From the NCBI GenBank assembly GCA_963845185.1, contig CAWJRG010000006.1, forward strand, positions 83,388 to 147,387: a DNA stretch of 64,000 nucleotides, given 5' to 3'. Positions 625 to 16,069 of this stretch are shown piece by piece; the first letter of the stretch is position 1; each line of letters opens with the position of its first letter. The notes beneath the pieces were generated by a model. The model ran no database searches, was not told where the DNA came from, and was given only the letters and a program-made list of their open reading frames with translations. Source of the stretch: an uncultured bacterium. GTDB taxonomy: Bacteria; Oederibacteriota; PGYV01; CAWJRG01. Both the position numbers and the translations under genes were made by a program.

Positions 625-1353
625 ATGATTAATAAGAAGGCATTTGCAATAATCTTATTTTTTACCGCTGTTTTTTCATTATGCCTATACGCCGGCAATT
701 ACAAATTCGGGTTCCCTTTGCCGGGCACTGCTGCGCCGGATTCCGTGCCCCTGGATGCCATGAGAAAAATAGCCGCGGATTCAGCCGTGTCCGTATGGGG
801 GCAGGCTTTACCGGTGGCGGAAATACCGTGCTGCGGCATGGACGGCGCAGAATCTTTTTATTATTTTGTCTTCAGGATAGACGGCGGCGCGCCGGGGGAT
901 TACCCGTCAATCACATCTGAAATCATGCAGGGAAGGGCCGATTACAAAGAAATAATAAATTCCCCCGTGAATAACACGAAAGAATATTACGCTAAATTCC
1001 TGGACGCGAAAAAAAGGAAGTGGGGCATAGGCAGGTACGGGACCGTCGTAGTTTCATGCAGGCTGTCGTTCCCGCCGGTGCCAGAGTTTATACACGGCCT
1101 GCCGCCTTTTTATACCATGCTTGATATTATGGCGTCGCAGTGCCCTGCAGGGGCAACGCTTACGAGGATTTATTATATTACGCCCATGGACCAGTTTTAT
1201 GAATTTTCCTCAGGCAGCAAAAGCACGGTAATTGACGGGCTGTCGCTGAAAGTTGAGGACATGGACGGCCTGAAGAAAAGATACCCGGGCTCATTTGCCT
1301 CCAATGCAAATGAAAAAAATTTTGAAAAGGAATGGGCCCGCTATGGCCGCTAA
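625..1353 (+). CDS. Secreted protein resembling a stand-alone peptidase propeptide/Spi-type inhibitor
   Basis: Signal peptide MINKKAFAIILFF...; FYYFVF...GTVVVS...PP pattern recalls the YVFN...GFVIVS...P pattern of streptopain prodomain/Spi; overlaps start of downstream peptidase gene. Confidence 0.55.
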   Translation: MINKKAFAIILFFTAVFSLCLYAGNYKFGFPLPGTAAPDSVPLDAMRKIAADSAVSVWGQALPVAEIPCCGMDGAESFYYFVFRIDGGAPGDYPSITSEIMQGRADYKEIINSPVNNTKEYYAKFLDAKKRKWGIGRYGTVVVSCRLSFPPVPEFIHGLPPFYTMLDIMASQCPAGATLTRIYYITPMDQFYEFSSGSKSTVIDGLSLKVEDMDGLKKRYPGSFASNANEKNFEKEWARYGR

Positions 1354-4300
1354 AAAAACCCTCCTCATATCAGCCTTTATATTATGCGTATTTTCACTGC
1401 ATGCGGCTTATCATTATGTTCCTTACATGGACGGGGCAGACATGACGCGCATGCCTGCTTTTTTGTGGTATGCGGGCTGCGCCCCGACATCAGCGTGCAT
1501 GGTACTGGGTTACTGGGATAATTACGGCGCCATGGGCGGCGGGACTTATGGCAAGAACATCAATTACGGCAAACTTTTGCAGTATTATATGGACAAGACC
1601 GCAATGCTTACGCTGAAGGGGTACAACGGGACGATTTTTTCGTGGAGTTATTACGACGCGGACGTGCCAAAGGCAAAAACACAGTACGAGCTGGCGTATT
1701 ATATGCACACCGATTCCGGCGGCGGCACAACCACCAATATGGCGCCGGTGGGAATAGCAACGGTCGCGGCATCCAGGGGCTATACCGACGCGACCAGCGA
1801 AGATTTGCAGGGAACCGCGGCCAATGACTGGTCGTGGCAAAACCTTGTGAATTCCATCAACAGCGGGCAGCCGTGCATATGGTACAACATCATATCCAGC
1901 CAGGGGCATGCCATGGCGGCATGGGGATACAATGACAACAAGTATGTCATGGTTTACAACACATGGGATGAAATGCGCCATGATTATTATTACCAGTATT
2001 ACACCGGAGTGACAGGCATGGCTAATGTGCTTGCAGGCGTGACCACGTTCAATCCCGGGACCATGGGCATGGATTCGGACGCGGAGCTTTTTTCGCCTGA
2101 CGGCGGCGAGGCATGGGCCGATAACATACCGCAAAGCATACACTGGCAGCAGTACGGGCCAAGCATAGATACAGTGAACATATTTTATTCCCAGGACGGC
2201 GGGCTGGACTGGACGCAAATAACTTCAACTGCGGGCGCAACAGGCGACAATTATTTTACATGGACCCCTCCGGGTACAGTGAACTCAACGAGAATGAGGG
2301 TCAGGATAGAGGGGTGGTCCGGAGGCGGGAGCGGCCTGCATTACGGCGACGACGGCAGCAGGCAGAATTTCTCGTGCACGGCACCTACATTTACATGCAC
2401 ACCGACGCCGACATTTACAGGCACGCCGACAATAACGCAGACATATACAGTAACGCCTTTAGTGTCGCCGACGGGCACCCCGATAATAACCAGTGTTCCC
2501 ACCATAATTCCGGGGTCAACGCCCTGCTTTATAACGCAATGGGGCGGTTTAGGAACCGGCAACGGGCAGTTTTATAATCCTTACGGAGTAGCAGCAGACA
2601 GCAGCGGAAACGTGTATGTTTCAGACACTTATAACAACAGGATACAAAAATTCAGCAGCACAGGCACATATATAACGCAGTGGGGCGGTTTAGGAACAGG
2701 CAACGGGCAGTTTGAATACCCCAATGGAATAGCGGCAGACAGCAGCGGGAACGTGTATGTTGCAGACACTGATAATAACAGGATACAAAAATTTGACAGT
2801 ACAGGCACATATATAACGCAATGGGGAAGTCCGGGAACCGGCAACGGGCAGTTTAGCTGGCCCTATGGAGTAGCAGCAGACAGCAGCGGAAGCGTGTATG
2901 TTTCGGATGCTGATAACAGCAACATCCAGAAATTCAGCAGTACAGGCACATATATAACGCAATGGGGAAGTCCGGGAACCGGCAACGGGCAGTTTAGCTG
3001 GCCCTATGGAGTAGCAGCAGACAGCAGCGGAAGCGTGTATGTTTCGGATGCTGATAACAGCAACATCCAGAAATTCAGCAGTACAGGCACATATATAACA
3101 CAGTGGGGAAGTTACGGAACAGGCAACGGGCAGTTTGATTATCCTGAAGGATTGGCTGCAGACAGCAGCGGAAACGTGTACGTTATAGACGATGGCAATG
3201 ACAGGGTACAGGAGTTCAGCAGTACAGGCACATATATAACACAATGGGGAAGTTCCGGGACAGGCAACGGGCAGTTTGATTTTCCTTATGGAGTGGCAAT
3301 GGACAGCAGCGGAAACGTGTATGTTTCAGACACTGAAAATAATATAATCCAGAAATTCGGCGCGTGCCTCAGCCCTACGCCGACTCCGACATCCGGGCCG
3401 ACGCCCTGTTTTATAATGCAGTGGGGAAGTTACGGGACAGGCAACGGGCAGTTTAACGGTCCTGTAGGAATAGCAATAGACAGCAGCGGAAATGTGTATG
3501 TTTCAGACAATGAAAGAATCCAGAAATTCAGCAGCACAGGCGCATACATAACGCAATGGGGCAGCCTAGGAAACGGAATTGGGCAGTTTAACGGCCCTAC
3601 CGGAATAGCAACAGACAGCAGCGGAAACGTGTACGTTGTGGACACTTATAATGACAGGATCCAGATATTCAGCAGCACAGGCGCATACATAACCCAGTGG
3701 GGAGGTTTTGGATTTGGCCCCGGGCAGTTTTACTGGCCCGGTGACATAGCATTGGACAGCAGCGGAAACGCATATGTTGCAGATTCCAGCAACAGCAGAA
3801 TTCAGGTGCTGAGCAGTACAGGCGCATATTTAACCCAGTGGGGAAGTTATGGGACAGGCAACGGGCAGTTTAACTCGCCTTATTTCCTGGCGCTGGACAG
3901 CAGCGGAAACGTGTACGTTGCAGACGATGTTAACGACAGAATACAAAAATTCAACAGTGCAGGCACATACATAACGCAATGGGGCAGTGCCGGGACCGGC
4001 CCGGGGCAGTTTAATAACCCGTGGGGGCTGGCGGCAGACAGCAGCGGGAACGTGTATGTTGCGGACAATTCCAACGGCAGAATCCAGGAATTCAGCAGTA
4101 CAGGCGCATACATAACGCAATGGGGCAGCATAGGAAACGGCATAGGGCAGTTTATTTATCCTGATTCCGTGGCAATAGACAGGAGCGGAAACATATATGT
4201 TACGGACGAAGGCAATAACAGGATCCAGAAATTCGGCGCGTGCGGTAACCCGACGCTTACTTTAACGGCAATACCTGCAATAACACAAACCATAACTGAA

Positions 4301-6064
4301 ACAACGACGGGCACTCCTACGATGACACAGACAAGGACGCCGGTCCCGTCGCAAACACAGACGTACACGGCAACGCCTGTCGTATCTTTGACAAACACAT
4401 TGACAACAACACTGACAAGCACAATGACACCTACGCCGACAATGACGCCGACTTTAACAACAACGCCTGTAGTGTCAATGACAGATACTGCGACAGCGAC
4501 GCCGACATATACGGCAACACCTGTAGTATCGGCGACAGAGACCCCTACAGCGACACAGACGTTTACAGCAACGCCTGTTGTGTCAGCCACAGACACGCCG
4601 ACAATAACGCCGACATATACTGCCACTTTAGTGTCCGGGCCTACGCCCTGTTACATACTTAACTGGGGAACATTCGGGGCCTCCAGCGCGCAGTTTAATA
4701 ATCCATATGGAGCAGCAGCGGACAGCGCCGGAAACGTGTATATCGCTGACACTGATAACAACAGGATCCAAAAATTCGACAGCACAGGCACATATATAAC
4801 CCAGTGGGGAAGTTCAGGAACAGGCATTGGCCAGCTTAACAGCCCCATGGGAATAGCAACAGACAGCAGCGGAAACGTATATGTTTCGGATTCGGGCAAT
4901 TACAGGATCCAAAAGTTCAACAGCACAGGCACTTATATAACCCAGTGGGGAAGTTTAGGAACGGGCATTGGGCAGTTTAGCTGGCCTTATGGAATAGCGG
5001 TTTACAGCAATGGAAATGTGTATGTTGTAGATACAGGCAACAACAGGATAGAAGAATTCAGCAGCACAGGCGCATATATAACCCAGTGGGGAAGCGCCGG
5101 CAGCGGCACAGGGCAGTTTTACAGCCCCATGGGAGCAGCCATGGACAGCAGCGGGGACGTGTATATAGTGGATACCAATAATAACAGGATAGAAGAATTC
5201 AGCAGTACAGGCGCGTATATAACCCAGTTTGGCGGCGCAGGAATCGGCAACGGCCAGCTTTTTTATCCGGAAGGGATAGCGGTGGACAACAGCGGAAACG
5301 TGTATGTTTCAGACAGCATGAACAACAGAATCGAAGAATTCGGCAGCAATGACATTTATTTTACACAGTGGGGCGCTTACGGGACCGGCGCAGGCCAGTT
5401 TAACGGGCCTGGCGGAGTAGCAGTGGACAGCAGCGGGGACGTGTATGTTGCAGACGTCAGTAATTTCAGGATACAAAAATTCGGAGCGTGCACCAGCCCG
5501 ACGCCGACTTTTACAAACACAGTATCGCAGACGCCTACATATACAAACACGCCGAGCCCGACGCCGACGTTTACGGTGACTCCAACATCGACATGCACAA
5601 ATACAGCCACGGCTACCGGCACAACAACGCTCACTTTTACTTATACCGCCACGATTACCCCTTCCCGGACAGCACTGGTTTTTACAGCCACGCCAACTTA
5701 TACGGCGACATACGCCGGGACCGTGACGCCGACTGTTATCCCGACCGAATCCACGGCAAGAATAATCAATCCTGTAATTTACCCCAACCCGTATGACCCG
5801 GCAGGTAACGGGGACTTGCGGATAAGGCTGCAGATTACGCAGGTATTTAAGAATATCAGGCTGAGGATATACACCGTGGCTTTCAGGCTGATAAGGGAAG
5901 AAACCTGGGACGGGGAATTCCAGGCAGGCGGAATAAACATAGACGTCGCGCAGGACAAGCTTTATAACATGGCAAACGGCACATATTATTTCCTGATAAC
6001 GGCTGAAACATGGGACGGGAAGACAATAAAAGGCAAGCCGGAAAACGTCATTATATTAAGATAA
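1343..6064 (+). CDS. Large secreted modular protein: papain-fold (C39-like/C10-like) Cys peptidase + Ig-like domain + three 6-bladed NHL propellers + Thr/Pro linkers + YPNP C-terminal domain
   Basis: Signal peptide from ATG 1343; GCAPTSACMVLGYW, GHAMAAWGY and YNTW catalytic-like motifs; SPDGGEAW Ig start; 18 NHL repeats; C-terminal IYPNPY...NGTYYF...IILR. Confidence 0.85.
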   Translation: MAAKKTLLISAFILCVFSLHAAYHYVPYMDGADMTRMPAFLWYAGCAPTSACMVLGYWDNYGAMGGGTYGKNINYGKLLQYYMDKTAMLTLKGYNGTIFSWSYYDADVPKAKTQYELAYYMHTDSGGGTTTNMAPVGIATVAASRGYTDATSEDLQGTAANDWSWQNLVNSINSGQPCIWYNIISSQGHAMAAWGYNDNKYVMVYNTWDEMRHDYYYQYYTGVTGMANVLAGVTTFNPGTMGMDSDAELFSPDGGEAWADNIPQSIHWQQYGPSIDTVNIFYSQDGGLDWTQITSTAGATGDNYFTWTPPGTVNSTRMRVRIEGWSGGGSGLHYGDDGSRQNFSCTAPTFTCTPTPTFTGTPTITQTYTVTPLVSPTGTPIITSVPTIIPGSTPCFITQWGGLGTGNGQFYNPYGVAADSSGNVYVSDTYNNRIQKFSSTGTYITQWGGLGTGNGQFEYPNGIAADSSGNVYVADTDNNRIQKFDSTGTYITQWGSPGTGNGQFSWPYGVAADSSGSVYVSDADNSNIQKFSSTGTYITQWGSPGTGNGQFSWPYGVAADSSGSVYVSDADNSNIQKFSSTGTYITQWGSYGTGNGQFDYPEGLAADSSGNVYVIDDGNDRVQEFSSTGTYITQWGSSGTGNGQFDFPYGVAMDSSGNVYVSDTENNIIQKFGACLSPTPTPTSGPTPCFIMQWGSYGTGNGQFNGPVGIAIDSSGNVYVSDNERIQKFSSTGAYITQWGSLGNGIGQFNGPTGIATDSSGNVYVVDTYNDRIQIFSSTGAYITQWGGFGFGPGQFYWPGDIALDSSGNAYVADSSNSRIQVLSSTGAYLTQWGSYGTGNGQFNSPYFLALDSSGNVYVADDVNDRIQKFNSAGTYITQWGSAGTGPGQFNNPWGLAADSSGNVYVADNSNGRIQEFSSTGAYITQWGSIGNGIGQFIYPDSVAIDRSGNIYVTDEGNNRIQKFGACGNPTLTLTAIPAITQTITETTTGTPTMTQTRTPVPSQTQTYTATPVVSLTNTLTTTLTSTMTPTPTMTPTLTTTPVVSMTDTATATPTYTATPVVSATETPTATQTFTATPVVSATDTPTITPTYTATLVSGPTPCYILNWGTFGASSAQFNNPYGAAADSAGNVYIADTDNNRIQKFDSTGTYITQWGSSGTGIGQLNSPMGIATDSSGNVYVSDSGNYRIQKFNSTGTYITQWGSLGTGIGQFSWPYGIAVYSNGNVYVVDTGNNRIEEFSSTGAYITQWGSAGSGTGQFYSPMGAAMDSSGDVYIVDTNNNRIEEFSSTGAYITQFGGAGIGNGQLFYPEGIAVDNSGNVYVSDSMNNRIEEFGSNDIYFTQWGAYGTGAGQFNGPGGVAVDSSGDVYVADVSNFRIQKFGACTSPTPTFTNTVSQTPTYTNTPSPTPTFTVTPTSTCTNTATATGTTTLTFTYTATITPSRTALVFTATPTYTATYAGTVTPTVIPTESTARIINPVIYPNPYDPAGNGDLRIRLQITQVFKNIRLRIYTVAFRLIREETWDGEFQAGGINIDVAQDKLYNMANGTYYFLITAETWDGKTIKGKPENVIILR
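2799..3100 (+). repeat. Exact 141-bp tandem duplication of one NHL blade
   Basis: Blades 3 and 4 of propeller 1 are nucleotide-identical (SWPYGVAADSSGSVYVSDADNSNIQKF twice). Confidence 0.85.
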
Positions 6065-11647: not shown

Positions 11648-12078
11648 TTTGCTATTTTTGCAGCTGCCTCAAGCGCCAGGTAATAACTGTTTTCCCCAAA
11701 GCCGGTAATCTGGCCAACGACAACAGGAGCGATAAACGACTTTTGCCTGAAATCCTCCCTTTTATATATGTTGGAAAGGTGGACTTCTATGGTGGGAATA
11801 TTTACCGAAGCCAGGGCGTCCCTTATTGCCACGGATGTGTGGGTATAGGCGCCGGGGTTTATTATAATGCAGTCTGCCCAGTTCAAGCCGTGCTGTATGG
11901 TGTCCACAATCTCGCCTTCATGGTTGCTTTGAACTGTTTTAATCTCCATATCAAGCTCTTTTGCCTGTATTTCAAGGTTTTTATTTATTTTTGCAAGGTC
12001 GGTATTGCCGTATATATCAGGCTCTCTCTGGCCGAGCAGGTTTAAATTCGGGCCGTGTATAACAAGGACCTTTTTCAT
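11644..12078 (-). CDS. aroQ: Type II 3-dehydroquinate dehydratase
   Basis: MKKVLVIHGPNLNLLGQREPDIYG, QSNHEG, INPGAYTHTS, EVHLSN; GGAGG RBS before ATG 12078. Confidence 0.97.
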   Translation of the reverse strand: MKKVLVIHGPNLNLLGQREPDIYGNTDLAKINKNLEIQAKELDMEIKTVQSNHEGEIVDTIQHGLNWADCIIINPGAYTHTSVAIRDALASVNIPTIEVHLSNIYKREDFRQKSFIAPVVVGQITGFGENSYYLALEAAAKIAK

Positions 12079-12201
12079 GATTATGCCTCCGTGGTTGCTT
12101 GATTTTTTTAAGTATAACAGAAAAGCACGCGATTTCAACAGATTTTTCAGTTGAAGTTTTTGAATATAGGTTGTAAAATTGTGAAAATACGGATCCAGGA
12201 A

Positions 12202-12279
12202 GGGCTGGTAACTCAGTTTGGTTAGAGTGCCATCTTCACAGGATGGAAGTCGCCAGTTCAAATCTGGCCCAGCCCACCA
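12202..12279 (+). tRNA. tRNA-Val(CAC)
   Basis: Cloverleaf: GGGCTGG/CCAGCCC acceptor stem, anticodon arm CCATC-TTCACAG-GATGG, TTCAAAT T-loop, encoded ACCA end. Confidence 0.93.
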
Positions 12280-12376
12280 TGATTTTTCTTTTCCATACAA
12301 AAGCGGAGCAGATTGACTATTCGCTGGACAGACTGAATAATGTGAAGTTCAAAATTTCAAACCGGAGGCAGTAATT

Positions 12377-12445
12377 ATGTGCAAAACGTGCGGTTGCGGC
12401 ATGCCCAAGAAAACAAAAAAGAAAAAAACCAAAAAAGGCAAATAA
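12377..12445 (+). CDS. Putative 22-aa microprotein MCKTCGCGMPKKTKKKKTKKGK with a HypB-like CxxCGC metal-binding motif
   Basis: GGAGG at 12364-12368, ATG 12377, TAA 12443; directly upstream of hypA. Confidence 0.6.
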   Translation: MCKTCGCGMPKKTKKKKTKKGK

Positions 12446-12473
12446 CTTTAGAACAATATTTACGGAGTAAATC

Positions 12474-12815
12474 ATGCATGAAGTCTCAATAGCCGAAGAA
12501 ATCAGGGATATAGTCCTGGAAAAATTAAAGGAACATAAGGCAAGCAAGGTGAGTAAAATAAAATTAATGATAGGCGAGCTCACCACCATAGTACCTGAAG
12601 CACTTAAGTTTGCCCTTGAAATAGTTTCGGACAAGACAGCAATGCAGGGCGCAAAAATACAGATAAAGACTGTAAAAACAAAAGTAAAATGCCTAAAATG
12701 CAAAAGGAAATTTAAAGCCGTTGATTTTGATTATGCCTGCCGGGCTTGCAAAAGCCAGGATGTCAGAATCATTGAAGGAAAAGAAATGATAATAAAGACT
12801 ATTGATATGGAGTAA
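12474..12815 (+). CDS. hypA: Hydrogenase nickel metallochaperone HypA
   Basis: MHE start, two CxxC motifs, GKEM. Confidence 0.95.
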   Translation: MHEVSIAEEIRDIVLEKLKEHKASKVSKIKLMIGELTTIVPEALKFALEIVSDKTAMQGAKIQIKTVKTKVKCLKCKRKFKAVDFDYACRACKSQDVRIIEGKEMIIKTIDME

Positions 12816-12819
12816 CGAT

Positions 12820-13497
12820 ATGGCCAAAATCGATGTTTTTGAAAATATCATGAAGCGCAACGAGGCTAATGCCGCGAAAAACAAGAAAATAATAGGAAAG
12901 TCCCTGTGCATCAATATTATGAGCTCGCCGGGCGCAGGCAAGACAACCATACTTGAGCGCACAATGGAAATACTCGGAAAAAAATATAAAATTGCCGTAA
13001 TTGAAGGGGATGTGGCAACATCCAATGACGCGAAAAGAATCAAGAAATACAAAATACCAGTGTACCAGATAAAGACGGAGAACTACGGTGGCGGCTGCCA
13101 CCTGGACGCGGCCATGGTAAACAGCGCGCTTAAAAAATTAGGCGCTGGAAAGAAAAGGTATGATATTATTATAATTGAAAATGTAGGCAACCTTATATGC
13201 CCGGCTGATTTCGCGCTTGGCGAGGATAAAAAGGTGGTTGTGCTTTCCGTTACCGAAGGGGAAGACAAGCCGCTTAAATACCCTCTGATGTTTCAGGTGG
13301 CGGATGCGATGGTACTTAATAAAATAGACCTTGTGCCGCACCTTGATTTTGACCAGGAAGAGCTGTTCAAAAACATGAAAAAAGTTAACAGCCGATTGAC
13401 CCTGGTAAGAATGTCAGCCGCGCACGGGACATACACGGAGCAGTGGACAGGCCTTTTAGAAAAATGGATTAAGGAGAAAAAATGCCGGAAGAAGTAA
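12820..13497 (+). CDS. hypB: Hydrogenase nickel incorporation GTPase HypB
   Basis: SSPGAGKT, CHLDA, ENVGNLICPA, EGEDKPLKYP, NKID; no N-terminal CxxCGC or His-rich extension. Confidence 0.95.
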   Translation: MAKIDVFENIMKRNEANAAKNKKIIGKSLCINIMSSPGAGKTTILERTMEILGKKYKIAVIEGDVATSNDAKRIKKYKIPVYQIKTENYGGGCHLDAAMVNSALKKLGAGKKRYDIIIIENVGNLICPADFALGEDKKVVVLSVTEGEDKPLKYPLMFQVADAMVLNKIDLVPHLDFDQEELFKNMKKVNSRLTLVRMSAAHGTYTEQWTGLLEKWIKEKKCRKK

Positions 13498-15641
13498 AAC
13501 CATTAAGCAAGGATGATATAGATTACGCAAAGGTATTTAATATAAAAGTATGGGAGGGCATCCAATATAAACTCGCCAAAGTTCTCGGCATAACGATAAA
13601 AGTAATAAGCGAAGATAATAAAATAGAAACCGAGGAAACCAATTTTAACGAGTTCTGCGAACTTGTCAGGGGCACGGAAAAAGGCGCGTTGGCATGCAAG
13701 GAATTAAGGGTAAGCGAAACTGAAAAAGGAGCGAAATTCATCAAATGCAAGGCGGCGGGATTTACCCATTATTGCGCCTCGACTTATTTTTACGGGAAAA
13801 GATTCAATATACTTATAGGCATAAAAGGAGACCTGGATTATGACAAGACCGTAATTAAAAAAATCAGCGATGATTACGGGATAGATGCGGAAAAACTAAT
13901 AAAATCATATAAAAGCATGAGCGTAGTGTCTGAGGAAAAAATAATCAGCCTTACGGATCTGATACTGGACCTTTTTAACATAGTGGTGGAACTTTCAGTG
14001 CAGCAATACACCATTCACCGCGCAAACAAGGAAAAAGAGGAAGAAATAAGCAAGATGAGCGCGCTGATGGAAGCCAGCATAGTAATAAACTCCACCAGAA
14101 ATTTGCAGCAGCTTTTAAGGATAATCATGCAGTCTGCCGAACGCGTAATGCAGGCAGAGGCCAGCTCGGTATTTTTAATTGATTCAGAAAAAAACGAGCT
14201 GTATTTTGAAGTGGCTACAGGCCCGAAAGAAAAAGAGGTAAAAGAAATAAGGCTGAAAATGGGCGAGGGCATAGCAGGATATGTGGCATATACGGGCGAG
14301 TCTTTGCTTGTGCCCGATGTCTCAAAAGACCCGAGGTTCGCGCGCAGGGTGGATGAGCAGACGCACTTCATAACAAGATCAGCCATATGCGTGCCTTTGA
14401 AAGTAAGAAATCAGATTATAGGCGTGGTACAGGTGCTTAATAAAATAGGAGGGACAACTTTTTCCAAAACCGAGATAAAATTCCTTGAGGCCCTTGCGTC
14501 ACAGGCAGCCATAGCTATTGAGAATACAAACCTTTATGAGCATCTGGAAGAAAGGGCGGAGCAGTTAAACAAGGAATTAAAAGAAGCAAATATAAACCTG
14601 TCGATAGAAAAGCGCAGGATAGAATCAATGGTACAGAGCATGCAGGACGCCGTACTTGCCATAGACAAAGGCAGAAAAATAACCATGATGAACAGGATAG
14701 CGGAAAAAATATTTGATATTAACGCGGGCGAGGCTTTTAACAAGTTCATAGGAGATTATGTCAAGAACAAGGAAATAATTGATAATTTTAATCTGGTATT
14801 GACTGAAAAAAACTCAACAAAAGGCGAAGTTAAATTTATGCTGGGAAGCAAAGAACATATTTTTGCGGCAGTATTTGCACCGATAATATCAGAAAGCCAG
14901 GAAGCCGCTGGTTCGGTGGCTGTTTTAAGGGATATAACGGAATTAAAAGAGCTGGATAAAATGAAAACCGAATTTTTGAACATGGTCTCTCATGAACTCA
15001 GGACCCCTCTTACGCCGATACAGGCTTATTCGGAACTAATGATGACGCGGAATATGGAAGGCGAAAAGATAAAAGATTATGCAGGCATTATAAACAAGGA
15101 AACGCAAAGGCTTGGCGCGCTCATAGGGGACCTTCTCGACCTTTCAAGGGTGGAAGCAGGCAAGGGACTCAGCCTTGAACTGGAGGAAGTCGACCCTGTG
15201 GAGATAATCAAGCTTGTTTACGATACATTTAAAAATTCATCAAGCAAACATAAATTTATTTTGACAATACCTGAAAAAAGTGAGAAAATAATGATTGATA
15301 GAAATAAAATAATCCAGGTTATAACAAACCTGTTATCAAATGCCGTAAAGTATTCACCGGATGGCGGGAATATAACAATTATTTTTGAAGACAAAGGTAA
15401 TAGGGTGTATGTAAGAGTAAAGGATGAGGGAATAGGATTGGCCAAAGAGCATATTGACCAGGTTTTTGACAAGTTCTACAGGGTTCCAAGCGAAACAGTT
15501 AAAAAAATAAGCGGTACGGGCATAGGATTAACCATAGTAAAGTATATACTTGAACTGCACAACGGTGGAATAGCGGTTGAAAGCGAAGAGGGCAAGGGAA
15601 GCACATTTAGTTTTTATTTGCCAAAGGTAAAATCGATTTAA
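13482..15641 (+). CDS. Cytoplasmic sensor histidine kinase (PocR-like, GAF, PAS, HisKA, HATPase)
   Basis: SHELRTPL H-box; NAVKYS, DEGIG, GTGIGL; GEGIAG GAF motif; N-terminal FC...C...C PocR-like pattern. Confidence 0.9.
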   Translation: MPEEVKPLSKDDIDYAKVFNIKVWEGIQYKLAKVLGITIKVISEDNKIETEETNFNEFCELVRGTEKGALACKELRVSETEKGAKFIKCKAAGFTHYCASTYFYGKRFNILIGIKGDLDYDKTVIKKISDDYGIDAEKLIKSYKSMSVVSEEKIISLTDLILDLFNIVVELSVQQYTIHRANKEKEEEISKMSALMEASIVINSTRNLQQLLRIIMQSAERVMQAEASSVFLIDSEKNELYFEVATGPKEKEVKEIRLKMGEGIAGYVAYTGESLLVPDVSKDPRFARRVDEQTHFITRSAICVPLKVRNQIIGVVQVLNKIGGTTFSKTEIKFLEALASQAAIAIENTNLYEHLEERAEQLNKELKEANINLSIEKRRIESMVQSMQDAVLAIDKGRKITMMNRIAEKIFDINAGEAFNKFIGDYVKNKEIIDNFNLVLTEKNSTKGEVKFMLGSKEHIFAAVFAPIISESQEAAGSVAVLRDITELKELDKMKTEFLNMVSHELRTPLTPIQAYSELMMTRNMEGEKIKDYAGIINKETQRLGALIGDLLDLSRVEAGKGLSLELEEVDPVEIIKLVYDTFKNSSSKHKFILTIPEKSEKIMIDRNKIIQVITNLLSNAVKYSPDGGNITIIFEDKGNRVYVRVKDEGIGLAKEHIDQVFDKFYRVPSETVKKISGTGIGLTIVKYILELHNGGIAVESEEGKGSTFSFYLPKVKSI

Positions 15642-15655
15642 AAGGAGGAAATAAT

Positions 15656-16069
15656 ATGGCTGATGAAAAAAGAAAGGTGGTTGTAGCAGATGATGAGCCT
15701 TTTATATTGTCTGCGTTGCAGGATACTTTATCCGAGGACTATAAAGTTTACAGCGCAACAAACGGCAAGGAAGCCATAAAAATGGTTGAAAAGGTGGAGC
15801 CTGACCTGATAATACTTGACGTAATGATGCCTGAAATGGACGGGCTTGAGGCATGCAAAGTTTTGAAAAAATCTGCCGTAACTGCAAACGTGCCCATAAT
15901 AATATTGACCGCAAAAGGCCAGATAACGGATATTGAAAAAGGTTTTAAATCAGGAGCGGACGCTTATATTGTCAAGCCATTTTCACCGGCAAGGCTTATT
16001 GAGAAAGTGGAAGAAATTTTTGAAAAGGTTGAAATGCGGAGAAAGATCCAGGACAAAAAGAAAGAATAG
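15656..16069 (+). CDS. Single-domain response regulator
   Basis: ADDE, LDVMMP, LTAK, KPF receiver motifs. Confidence 0.93.
   Translation: MADEKRKVVVADDEPFILSALQDTLSEDYKVYSATNGKEAIKMVEKVEPDLIILDVMMPEMDGLEACKVLKKSAVTANVPIIILTAKGQITDIEKGFKSGADAYIVKPFSPARLIEKVEEIFEKVEMRRKIQDKKKE

Follow-up and report, generated by a model that had tools for sequence, protein, structure and literature searches.

Background

The closest described counterpart of the element reported here is the N-terminal tip of HypB, a GTPase of [NiFe]-hydrogenase maturation. In Escherichia coli this tip reads Cys2, Thr3, Thr4, Cys5, Gly6, Cys7, Gly8, Glu9 and binds Ni(II) with picomolar affinity, the ligands being the N-terminal amine and Cys2, Cys5 and Cys7; a peptide maquette of the motif binds both zinc and nickel, and the high-affinity site is essential for hydrogenase maturation, with a role that is still debated (PMC12284835, in its available text). 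In a 64,000-nucleotide stretch of DNA from an uncultured bacterium of the order Candidatus Goldbacteria (phylum Oederibacteriota; assembly GCA_963845185.1, contig CAWJRG010000006.1, positions 83,388 to 147,387; "the window" hereafter), we identified a 22-codon micro-gene just before hypA whose product begins with nearly the same residues. From its sequence and genomic setting, we consider it somewhat better than an even bet (roughly 0.55) that this product binds nickel and acts in trans, as a micropeptide synthesized alongside HypA and HypB.

The HypA/HypB pathway is fed or buffered by small accessory nickel binders, among them Hpn and Hpn-like of Helicobacter pylori, the C-terminal tail of SlyD, CooJ, and the His-rich stretch of HypB. 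The present peptide resembles these in being a small accessory nickel binder, if it binds nickel. However, they are rich in His (or in His and Cys) and hold several ions with lower affinity, whereas the peptide has one three-Cys site, no His, and a polycationic tail. The nickel hook at the N-terminus of nickel superoxide dismutase (NiSOD) holds square-planar nickel through the N-terminal amine and thiolates. Nickel sites built on Cys-Gly-Cys occur in the A-cluster of acetyl-CoA synthase and in a designed 13-residue di-nickel peptide (PMC10005181, available text). The likeness to these sites lies in the Cys-Gly-Cys unit, or the N-terminal amine and thiolates, or both, within a very short sequence; the peptide is known from its sequence, and no catalytic role is implied.

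With the N-terminal extension of HypB the peptide shares M-C-x-x-C-G-C-G at the very N-terminus and a gene within a hyp operon. It differs in being free of the G domain, in being encoded upstream of hypA rather than hypB, and in carrying a Lys tail where the extension has an acidic or His-rich linker. The classification of HypB into subgroups 1-3 in PMC13202556 has no free peptide among them in its available text; the short-type classification and the CHX30-34C definition used below come from the same text, and the definition of the CxxCGC motif from this text and that of PMC12284835.

Results and discussion

A stand-alone peptide with the HypB tip

A sequence-only reading of the window had pointed out a GGAGG and a 22-codon open reading frame (ORF) just before hypA, and both are present, at 12364-12368 and 12377-12445. 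The encoded peptide consists of a head, M-C-K-T-C-G-C-G, and a tail in which 10 of 14 residues are Lys. Seven of its first eight residues are identical to those of the E. coli HypB tip; the start MCTTCGC that the same reading had given for E. coli HypB agrees with residues Cys2-Cys7 in the available text of PMC12284835. The Cys directly after Met1 and the C-x-x-C-G-C spacing at a free N-terminus are those of the HypB nickel-site motif. The peptide is not covalently part of the HypB GTPase, as the ORF has its own stop codon and hypA lies in between.

When three versions of the micro-protein were compared with NCBIfam, the only families matched were HypB_prefix_1 (NF053667; E-values of 0.0015-0.011, the window peptide having 0.011) and HypB_prefix_2 (NF053668). 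A Pfam search with the peptide gave no match, and an exact look-up of six micro-proteins in a collection of 15 billion proteins found none of them. A short ORF (below about 35 amino acids) with its own ribosome-binding site (RBS) and a Lys-dominated tail, conserved within a clade and absent from the protein collection, the micro-gene has the features of the class of poly-lysine, cysteine-capped micro-proteins.

Three other assignments were considered and rejected. Metallothioneins are of a clustered, many-Cys, multi-ion type, whereas the peptide has three Cys only. A lipoprotein or secreted peptide is not indicated, as no hydrophobic segment is present. Finally, fusion of the peptide to HypA by programmed frameshifting would bury the N-terminal MHE of HypA, which we take to be the HypA nickel site, and hypA is not in a constant frame with respect to the micro-ORF across the versions.

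Conservation in Candidatus Goldbacteria and in metagenomes

The micro-gene, which is unannotated, has the following setting in the window.

12202..12279, + strand: tRNA-Val(CAC) (ARAGORN; Rfam tRNA, 62.6 bits)
12313..12341, + strand: promoter-like TTGACT-17-AATAAT (10 of 12 matches in a consensus scan; a candidate by pattern match only)
12364..12368, + strand: Shine-Dalgarno sequence GGAGG, 8 nucleotides (nt) 5' of the ATG at 12377
12377..12445, + strand: micro-gene, 22 codons plus stop (translation MCKTCGCGMPKKTKKKKTKKGK; TAA stop at 12443-12445)
12474..12815, + strand: hypA, 113 amino acids, MHE start, two CxxC pairs (Pfam PF01155, 111.2 bits; TIGR00100, 103.7 bits)
12820..13497, + strand: hypB, short type, 225 amino acids (TIGR00073, 251.8 bits; CH-X32-C in the G domain, no N-terminal Cys motif)
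13482..15641, + strand: PocR-GAF-PAS-HisKA-HATPase sensor kinase (Pfam), its start overlapping the end of hypB by 16 nt
15656..16069, + strand: stand-alone response-regulator receiver (Pfam PF00072, 108.5 bits)
Upstream, opposite strand: type II dehydroquinase gene (family scan)

The frame of the micro-ORF is closed on its 5' side by a TAA at 12338-12340, and no start codon lies between this TAA and the ATG, so that the ATG at 12377 is the start. The spacer between the 3' end of tRNA-Val and this ATG measures 97 nt and includes the promoter-like site. The stop codon of the micro-ORF is followed after 28 nt by the start of hypA, and that of hypA after 4 nt by the start of hypB; the PocR kinase gene is probably in the same operon as hypB. 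The hypB of the window is the only copy in the genome, which also has hypD and two or more genes for large subunits of [NiFe]-hydrogenase.

We searched for the head with ATGTGYNNNNNNTGYGGNTGYGG, a back-translation of M-C-x-x-C-G-C-G, using the reversed pattern as a control. The pattern occurs once in the 3.5-Mb genome (control, none) and in 5 of 60 relatives, all from the same order and all in syntenic micro-ORFs (control, one match), and has no match in 37 genomes of the same phylum from outside the order. A check for conserved micro-ORFs in relatives, which had been proposed together with the sequence-only reading, returned 6 of the order's 24 species genomes, as well as 7 loci from metagenomes that are described below. 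All six genome matches are ORFs of 15-22 codons that have GGAGG 6-11 nt 5' of the ATG and lie 24-129 nt downstream of tRNA-Val(CAC). Their heads read M-C-[K/A]-[T/A/N]-C-G-C-G, and their tails are 64-86% Lys. Five of the six genomes have hypA, hypB, and the gene for the PocR kinase downstream of the micro-ORF. In the sixth (genome G003, locus L002; G and L numbers are our handles) the kinase gene follows the micro-ORF directly, and hypA-hypB are on another contig behind a putative hypE, as read from the sequence.

The micro-ORF is present in 6 of the 10 hypA-bearing genomes of the order versus none of the 14 where hypA was not found, a co-occurrence that supports a link to hydrogenase maturation but is suggestive only, given the kinship among these genomes. 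Five of the six genomes in the order with tRNA-Val directly upstream of hypA have the intact motif, and no decayed version was seen. The exception, G013, has a 63-nt spacer with a short inverted repeat (read by eye).

In metagenomes we scanned for the head followed by ATGCAYGA within 25-55 nt, a range that leaves out the window's own gap to hypA and is limited to micro-ORFs this close to hypA; those farther from hypA or away from it lie outside its scope. The 54 stretches recovered comprise 7 pairs of micro-ORF and hypA, 43 long HypB-like frames with an in-frame Met-His-Glu/Asp, and 4 chance matches (Met-Cys-stop). The seven pairs represent five distinct sequences, one of which is identical to that of G002. 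Each of the five distinct loci has the order tRNA-Val, micro-ORF, hypA, hypB, kinase. At every locus checked, whether from a relative or a metagenome, this tRNA lies before the micro-ORF, and the PocR kinase gene follows hypB in all syntenic relatives (L003-L006, L018, L147, L160, L163, and L174). The kinase and receiver may together make up a two-component system connected with the nickel/hydrogenase operon.

Selection as a coding sequence

Thirteen loci yielded 10 distinct nucleotide versions of the micro-gene across four families of the order. Start codon, RBS, stop codon, and motif are intact in all 10, whereas the flanks differ in length and are not alignable. A period-3 pattern is visible in the alignment, and the Cys and Gly codons of the head vary at third positions only: TGC and TGT are used 7 and 3 times at codon 2, 5 and 5 times at codon 5, and 4 and 6 times at codon 7, while codon 6 is GGT in six versions, GGC in three and GGA in one. 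Position 3 is Lys in eight versions, Ala in one and Arg in one, and position 4 is Thr in eight, Ala in one and Asn in one.

The tail carries a further sign of constraint. Long A-tracts cause slippage of both ribosomes and polymerases, and the avoidance of long A-runs is therefore expected of a frame that needs faithful reading. The longest A-run in each of the 10 versions is 5-8 nt. Summed over the versions, the longest runs come to 71 nt, versus 121 nt when the Lys codons were resampled from the AAA/AAG usage of the neighboring genes; none of 5000 simulations reached 71, a count that is not a probability, as the versions are related. Even where neighboring genes use AAA for 93-100% of their Lys codons, AAG makes up 29-43% of those in the tail.

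We found no sign of constraint on RNA structure in the same sequences. RNAalifold applied to the 10 versions gave no conserved structure (-0.29 kcal/mol, three pairs, no compensatory change), and the fold of the window RNA was no better than that of its shuffles (z +0.66). Taken with the conservation described above, the data make it very probable that the micro-ORF is a real gene.

Probable coupling to hypA, and transcription

Nine of the 10 versions end 2-28 nt 5' of the hypA ATG. The gaps are 28, 2, 3, 12, and 9 nt in the five genome loci with hypA and 15, 9, 3, 3, and 2 nt in the metagenome loci. In L003, L004, L160, and L163, where the gap is 2-3 nt, hypA has no Shine-Dalgarno-like site, whereas four of five hypA loci without the micro-ORF have a GGAG or purine-rich site 5' of hypA. 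This arrangement suggests that micro-ORF and hypA are coupled by termination and reinitiation, by which the peptide and HypA would be made together; with such coupling, hypA expression at those four loci would depend on translation of the micro-ORF. In the window, by contrast, a GGAG precedes hypA and the gap is 28 nt.

In L005, L006, L147, and L156 only 24-26 nt separate the 3' end of tRNA-Val from the ATG. Such a spacer leaves no room for a separate promoter, so that tRNA and operon probably share a transcript at these loci, the 5' end of the hyp operon mRNA probably being formed by tRNA processing.

The micro-gene resembles leader peptides and upstream ORFs in being a short ORF at the head of an operon, with its stop codon 2-28 nt from the start of the following gene. 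It differs from them in that its peptide sequence is conserved and that neither an attenuator terminator nor an alternative fold, the marks of an attenuation-type leader, was found. No terminator-like site was detected on the + strand in 11900-13700, and an Rfam scan identified the tRNA only, with no nickel/cobalt riboswitch.

The HypB of the order is of the short type

The match of the window HypB to the E. coli-type model PRK10463 is limited to positions 79-286 of 290, so that the protein lacks the N-terminal extension and is of the short type. The absence of an N-terminal Cys motif from the local HypB, as stated in the sequence-only reading, is thereby borne out. All 10 HypB proteins seen in the order start M-A/S-E/K-I-x-V-F-E-N-I-M... 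and are without the motif. Among the best 120 HypB clusters from a search of 5.8 billion proteins, 119 have no CxxCGC in their first 40 residues, and one (52% identity) has the head and a His-rich stretch. The close clusters are named HypB of Candidatus Goldbacteria or Goldiibacteriota in their sources.

These comparisons lend no support to a recent splitting of the nickel site from the local HypB, as the sequence-only reading had suggested, with 0 of 10 HypB proteins in the order having the motif, 119 of the 120 closest clusters being of the short type, and free micro-genes occurring in unrelated lineages, as described below.

An apparent true split of HypB was seen in a Parasutterella metagenome-assembled genome (MAG; L071:2094-5031). 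Here hypA is followed by a 60-amino-acid ORF that has the head, a His-rich stretch, and its own RBS and stop codon, then by a spacer of about 70 nt that is closed in all frames, a hypB encoding the G domain only and having its own start, and hypF. The arrangement is known from a single MAG, and an assembly artefact is possible.

The same head in other lineages

We scanned species genomes for the head with two Lys codons within 25 nt. At least 116 stretches were recovered, and the full flanks of 80 loci were inspected; the loci below are thus examples and not a census. Many of the matches listed are full HypB proteins. Also among them are His-rich proteins of 59-145 amino acids that have the HypB head but no G domain, in Desulfovibrionaceae-type genomes (L030, L054, L027, L104, L075), and Cys-rich proteins of 39-46 amino acids with the head and further CxxC or CC motifs (L067, L061, L130, L113, L102). 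The gene for the His-rich protein of L075 adjoins a gene for a cation-efflux (CDF) transporter. The Cys-rich gene of L067 lies within a cluster for ferritin, rubrerythrin, desulfoferrodoxin, FMN-reductase, and peroxiredoxin, and the gene layout of L061 matches it. To judge from these matches, the head is a portable N-terminal module.

The matches listed also include at least 14 short ORFs of 11-31 amino acids with Lys-rich tails, three of them from Goldbacteria genomes. Examples of free Lys-tailed micro-genes come from one MAG each of the Gammaproteobacteria and Chloroflexota and from one genome each of the Woesearchaeota and Phycisphaerae. Three loci from other phyla (L127, L128, L136) are stand-alone short ORFs with their own RBS and an intrinsic terminator read by eye. 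The free micro-genes of Methanocellales, Phycisphaerae, Chloroflexota, and Woesearchaeota share with the Goldbacteria copy the head, the short basic tail, a length of 11-31 amino acids, an RBS of their own, and the lack of annotation. They differ in having no adjoining hyp genes where their neighbors were scanned, whereas the Goldbacteria copy is the first cistron before hypA-hypB. Four of five genomes with a free micro-gene have HypB, which is of the short type in all four; this is consistent with action in trans and no test of it, since short-type HypB is common.

In Methanocellales (L202-L231, G065-G079) a 12-residue peptide, MCD[T/S]CGCGKKPK, is encoded behind a GGAGGTGA-type site in 13 of 15 genomes, with synonymous differences among the copies. 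A second family of 52-60 amino acids (one of 84) with the head MC[I/V/L]SCGCG... is also present in 13 of the 15 genomes, often in multiple copies. Apart from weak matches to HypB_prefix, neither Methanocellales family matched any known family. A 1589-amino-acid protein at 1295-6064 of the window has, as read from its translation, many NHL-type repeats with Thr/Pro-rich linkers between them, and a similar NHL protein adjoins the Methanocellaceae micro-ORF in L105.

In an order of Phycisphaerae (L232-L259), 81 genomes yielded 25 matches to proteins of 85-91 amino acids that combine an MC[D/E]xCGCG head with a NifU domain; the one that was scanned matches PF01106. Of the 25 genomes with such a protein 24 have hypB, versus 63 of the 81 overall. 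No hyp neighbors were found at the six Phycisphaerae loci scanned, which carry head-bearing NifU-like and poly-Lys genes.

Proposed role and alternative explanations

Given the 7/8 identity to the tip of E. coli HypB, the head would bind a metal, most likely nickel and possibly also Zn(II). We propose a mechanism in which C2-x-x-C5-G6-C7-G8 would hold Ni(II) in square-planar geometry through the N-terminal amine and the thiolates of the three Cys, as in E. coli-type HypB, and the Lys tail would replace the covalent linker. The tail could dock the nickel-loaded head electrostatically on HypB, HypA, or the hydrogenase precursor, or park it on a polyanion. The peptide is encoded by the first cistron of an operon of micro-ORF, hypA, hypB, and kinase, would be translationally coupled to hypA, and would supply a short-type HypB system, in trans, with the high-affinity N-terminal nickel site that other HypB proteins hold in cis. 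Action in trans is made plausible by G003, which keeps both the micro-ORF and, on another contig, hypA-hypB, by the stand-alone ORFs of L127, L128, and L136, by the short-type HypB in all four genomes noted above, and by the Parasutterella split.

A number of points weigh against a trans-acting nickel-binding peptide. We infer metal binding from motif identity only, and nickel specificity, a role in hydrogenase maturation, and the function of the tail likewise from sequence and context. The NCBIfam scores are below the cut-offs (17.1-19.9 versus 30 bits for HypB_prefix_1; 12.9 versus 35 bits for HypB_prefix_2) because the peptides are so short, covering only positions 1-19 of the 72 in the HypB_prefix_1 profile. 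The invariance of C2, C5, G6, C7, and G8 among the matches is forced by the search pattern, and the unbiased sample is limited to the order's 24 genomes. Nickel bound at the HypB tip of E. coli is not passed to HypA, and the motif without the remaining extension is insufficient for maturation (PMC12284835, available text). Nor is the peptide generally needed for HypAB: 119 of the 120 nearest HypB clusters are of the short type, and most short-type HypB proteins presumably function without it. Within the order, 4 of the 10 hypA-bearing genomes are without the peptide, one of them being G013, which has the same operon of tRNA-Val, hypA, hypB, and kinase but no micro-ORF, and the retention of the ORF before the kinase gene in G003 also fits an operon leader. 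Outside the order, none of the free look-alike micro-genes with scanned neighbors is next to hyp genes. The three Methanocellales loci scanned lie near genes for PAC2, RIO1, KH, or eIF2-alpha proteins, and in Phycisphaerae a free gene for a 31-amino-acid Cys-capped poly-Lys micro-protein (L255:492-1523, G062) is upstream of genes for a flavodoxin and a histone H1-like Hc1 protein (PF07432). With hypB present in 63 of the 81 genomes of the Phycisphaerae order, co-occurrence there is uninformative. To judge from the look-alikes without hyp neighbors, the design of head plus Lys tail may serve a function unrelated to hydrogenase.

Such a function is at the core of an explanation that we regard as unlikely, in which the peptide is a generic cysteine-capped polycation from a broad class of Lys-rich micro-proteins that coat RNA, ribosomes, DNA, or polyphosphate, its cap binding, for example, zinc or being redox-active, and its proximity to hypA reflects a slot behind tRNA-Val and no part in nickel delivery. 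The same head and basic tail do occur without hyp neighbors at the loci scanned, examples being known from Methanocellales (the 12-residue version of 13 of 15 genomes) and from gammaproteobacterial, Chloroflexota, Woesearchaeota, and Phycisphaerae genomes, and in G003 the ORF stays behind tRNA-Val while hypAB is elsewhere. Within the order, however, the micro-ORF is confined to hypA-bearing genomes (6/10 versus 0/14), 9 of 10 versions abut hypA by 2-28 nt and show signs of coupling, the head is exactly that of the HypB tip, and the HypB prefix is the sole family match. The signs of coupling could also be taken to mean that the peptide has no job and that the ORF acts in cis, chiefly by loading ribosomes onto hypA through termination-reinitiation or by tuning the operon, for which nickel or cysteine might be the cue. 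The 2-3 nt gaps and the missing hypA RBS in L003, L004, L160, and L163, the GGAG-type hypA site where the micro-ORF is absent, and the position of the G003 ORF at the head of the remaining kinase operon all fit this idea. Yet coupling needs no specific peptide, and the head is kept by synonymous changes while the tail avoids slippery A-runs; in addition, no terminator or conserved alternative fold lies between ORF and hypA, a GGAG of its own and a gap of 28 nt set hypA of the window apart, and free monocistronic versions exist elsewhere. We hold a mainly cis-acting role to be improbable, more so than a generic polycation.

The sequence-only reading had offered three views of the peptide. One of them, which takes it for a relic left by rearrangement of the hypB 5' end, is contradicted by the conservation of the micro-gene. 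Its head does equal the start of long-type hypB genes, a part that the local HypB lacks, but start, RBS, stop, and motif are intact in 10 versions from four families with unalignable flanks, the motif is missing from every HypB seen in the order, and the reversed control pattern matched never in the genome and once in 61 genomes; the chance that the ORF is such a relic, or a fortuitous ORF in an A-rich spacer, is very slight. The peptide may instead be a metal-sensing leader: the 2-3 nt gaps and the absence of a hypA RBS in four versions are signs of translational coupling. No attenuator-like terminator or conserved RNA structure was found. A free nickel-binding peptide is the view that we favor, on the strength of a conserved coding sequence with its own RBS, the position as first cistron, and the HypB prefix match, nickel binding being predicted from the likeness of the head.

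Conclusions

A wider and rather doubtful proposal is that Cys-capped, Lys-tailed peptides of 11-31 residues are a widespread, unannotated class of natural minimal metallopeptides in bacteria and archaea. The Goldbacteria member would then be a nickel chaperone the size of a peptide, the third in [NiFe]-hydrogenase maturation, supplying in trans the essential but poorly understood high-affinity site of HypB and anchored by its tail to a partner or polyanion. On this proposal its C-G-C unit might even hold nickel in the N2S2 manner of acetyl-CoA synthase, as the designed 13-residue di-nickel peptide does.

The novel part of the present finding is the known nickel-binding tip of HypB in the form of a stand-alone, Lys-tailed micro-protein inside a hyp operon. 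Neither a free CxxCGC peptide nor a micro-ORF 5' of hypA was found described in open-access PMC and bioRxiv full text. The micro-gene provides, through its genomic context, a first functional anchor for cysteine-capped poly-lysine micro-genes, which are missed by gene callers. If the favored reading is true, the high-affinity site of HypB exists here as a separate peptide of 15-22 residues, made together with HypA and a short-type HypB, and could be examined in isolation by titration, deletion, and add-back.

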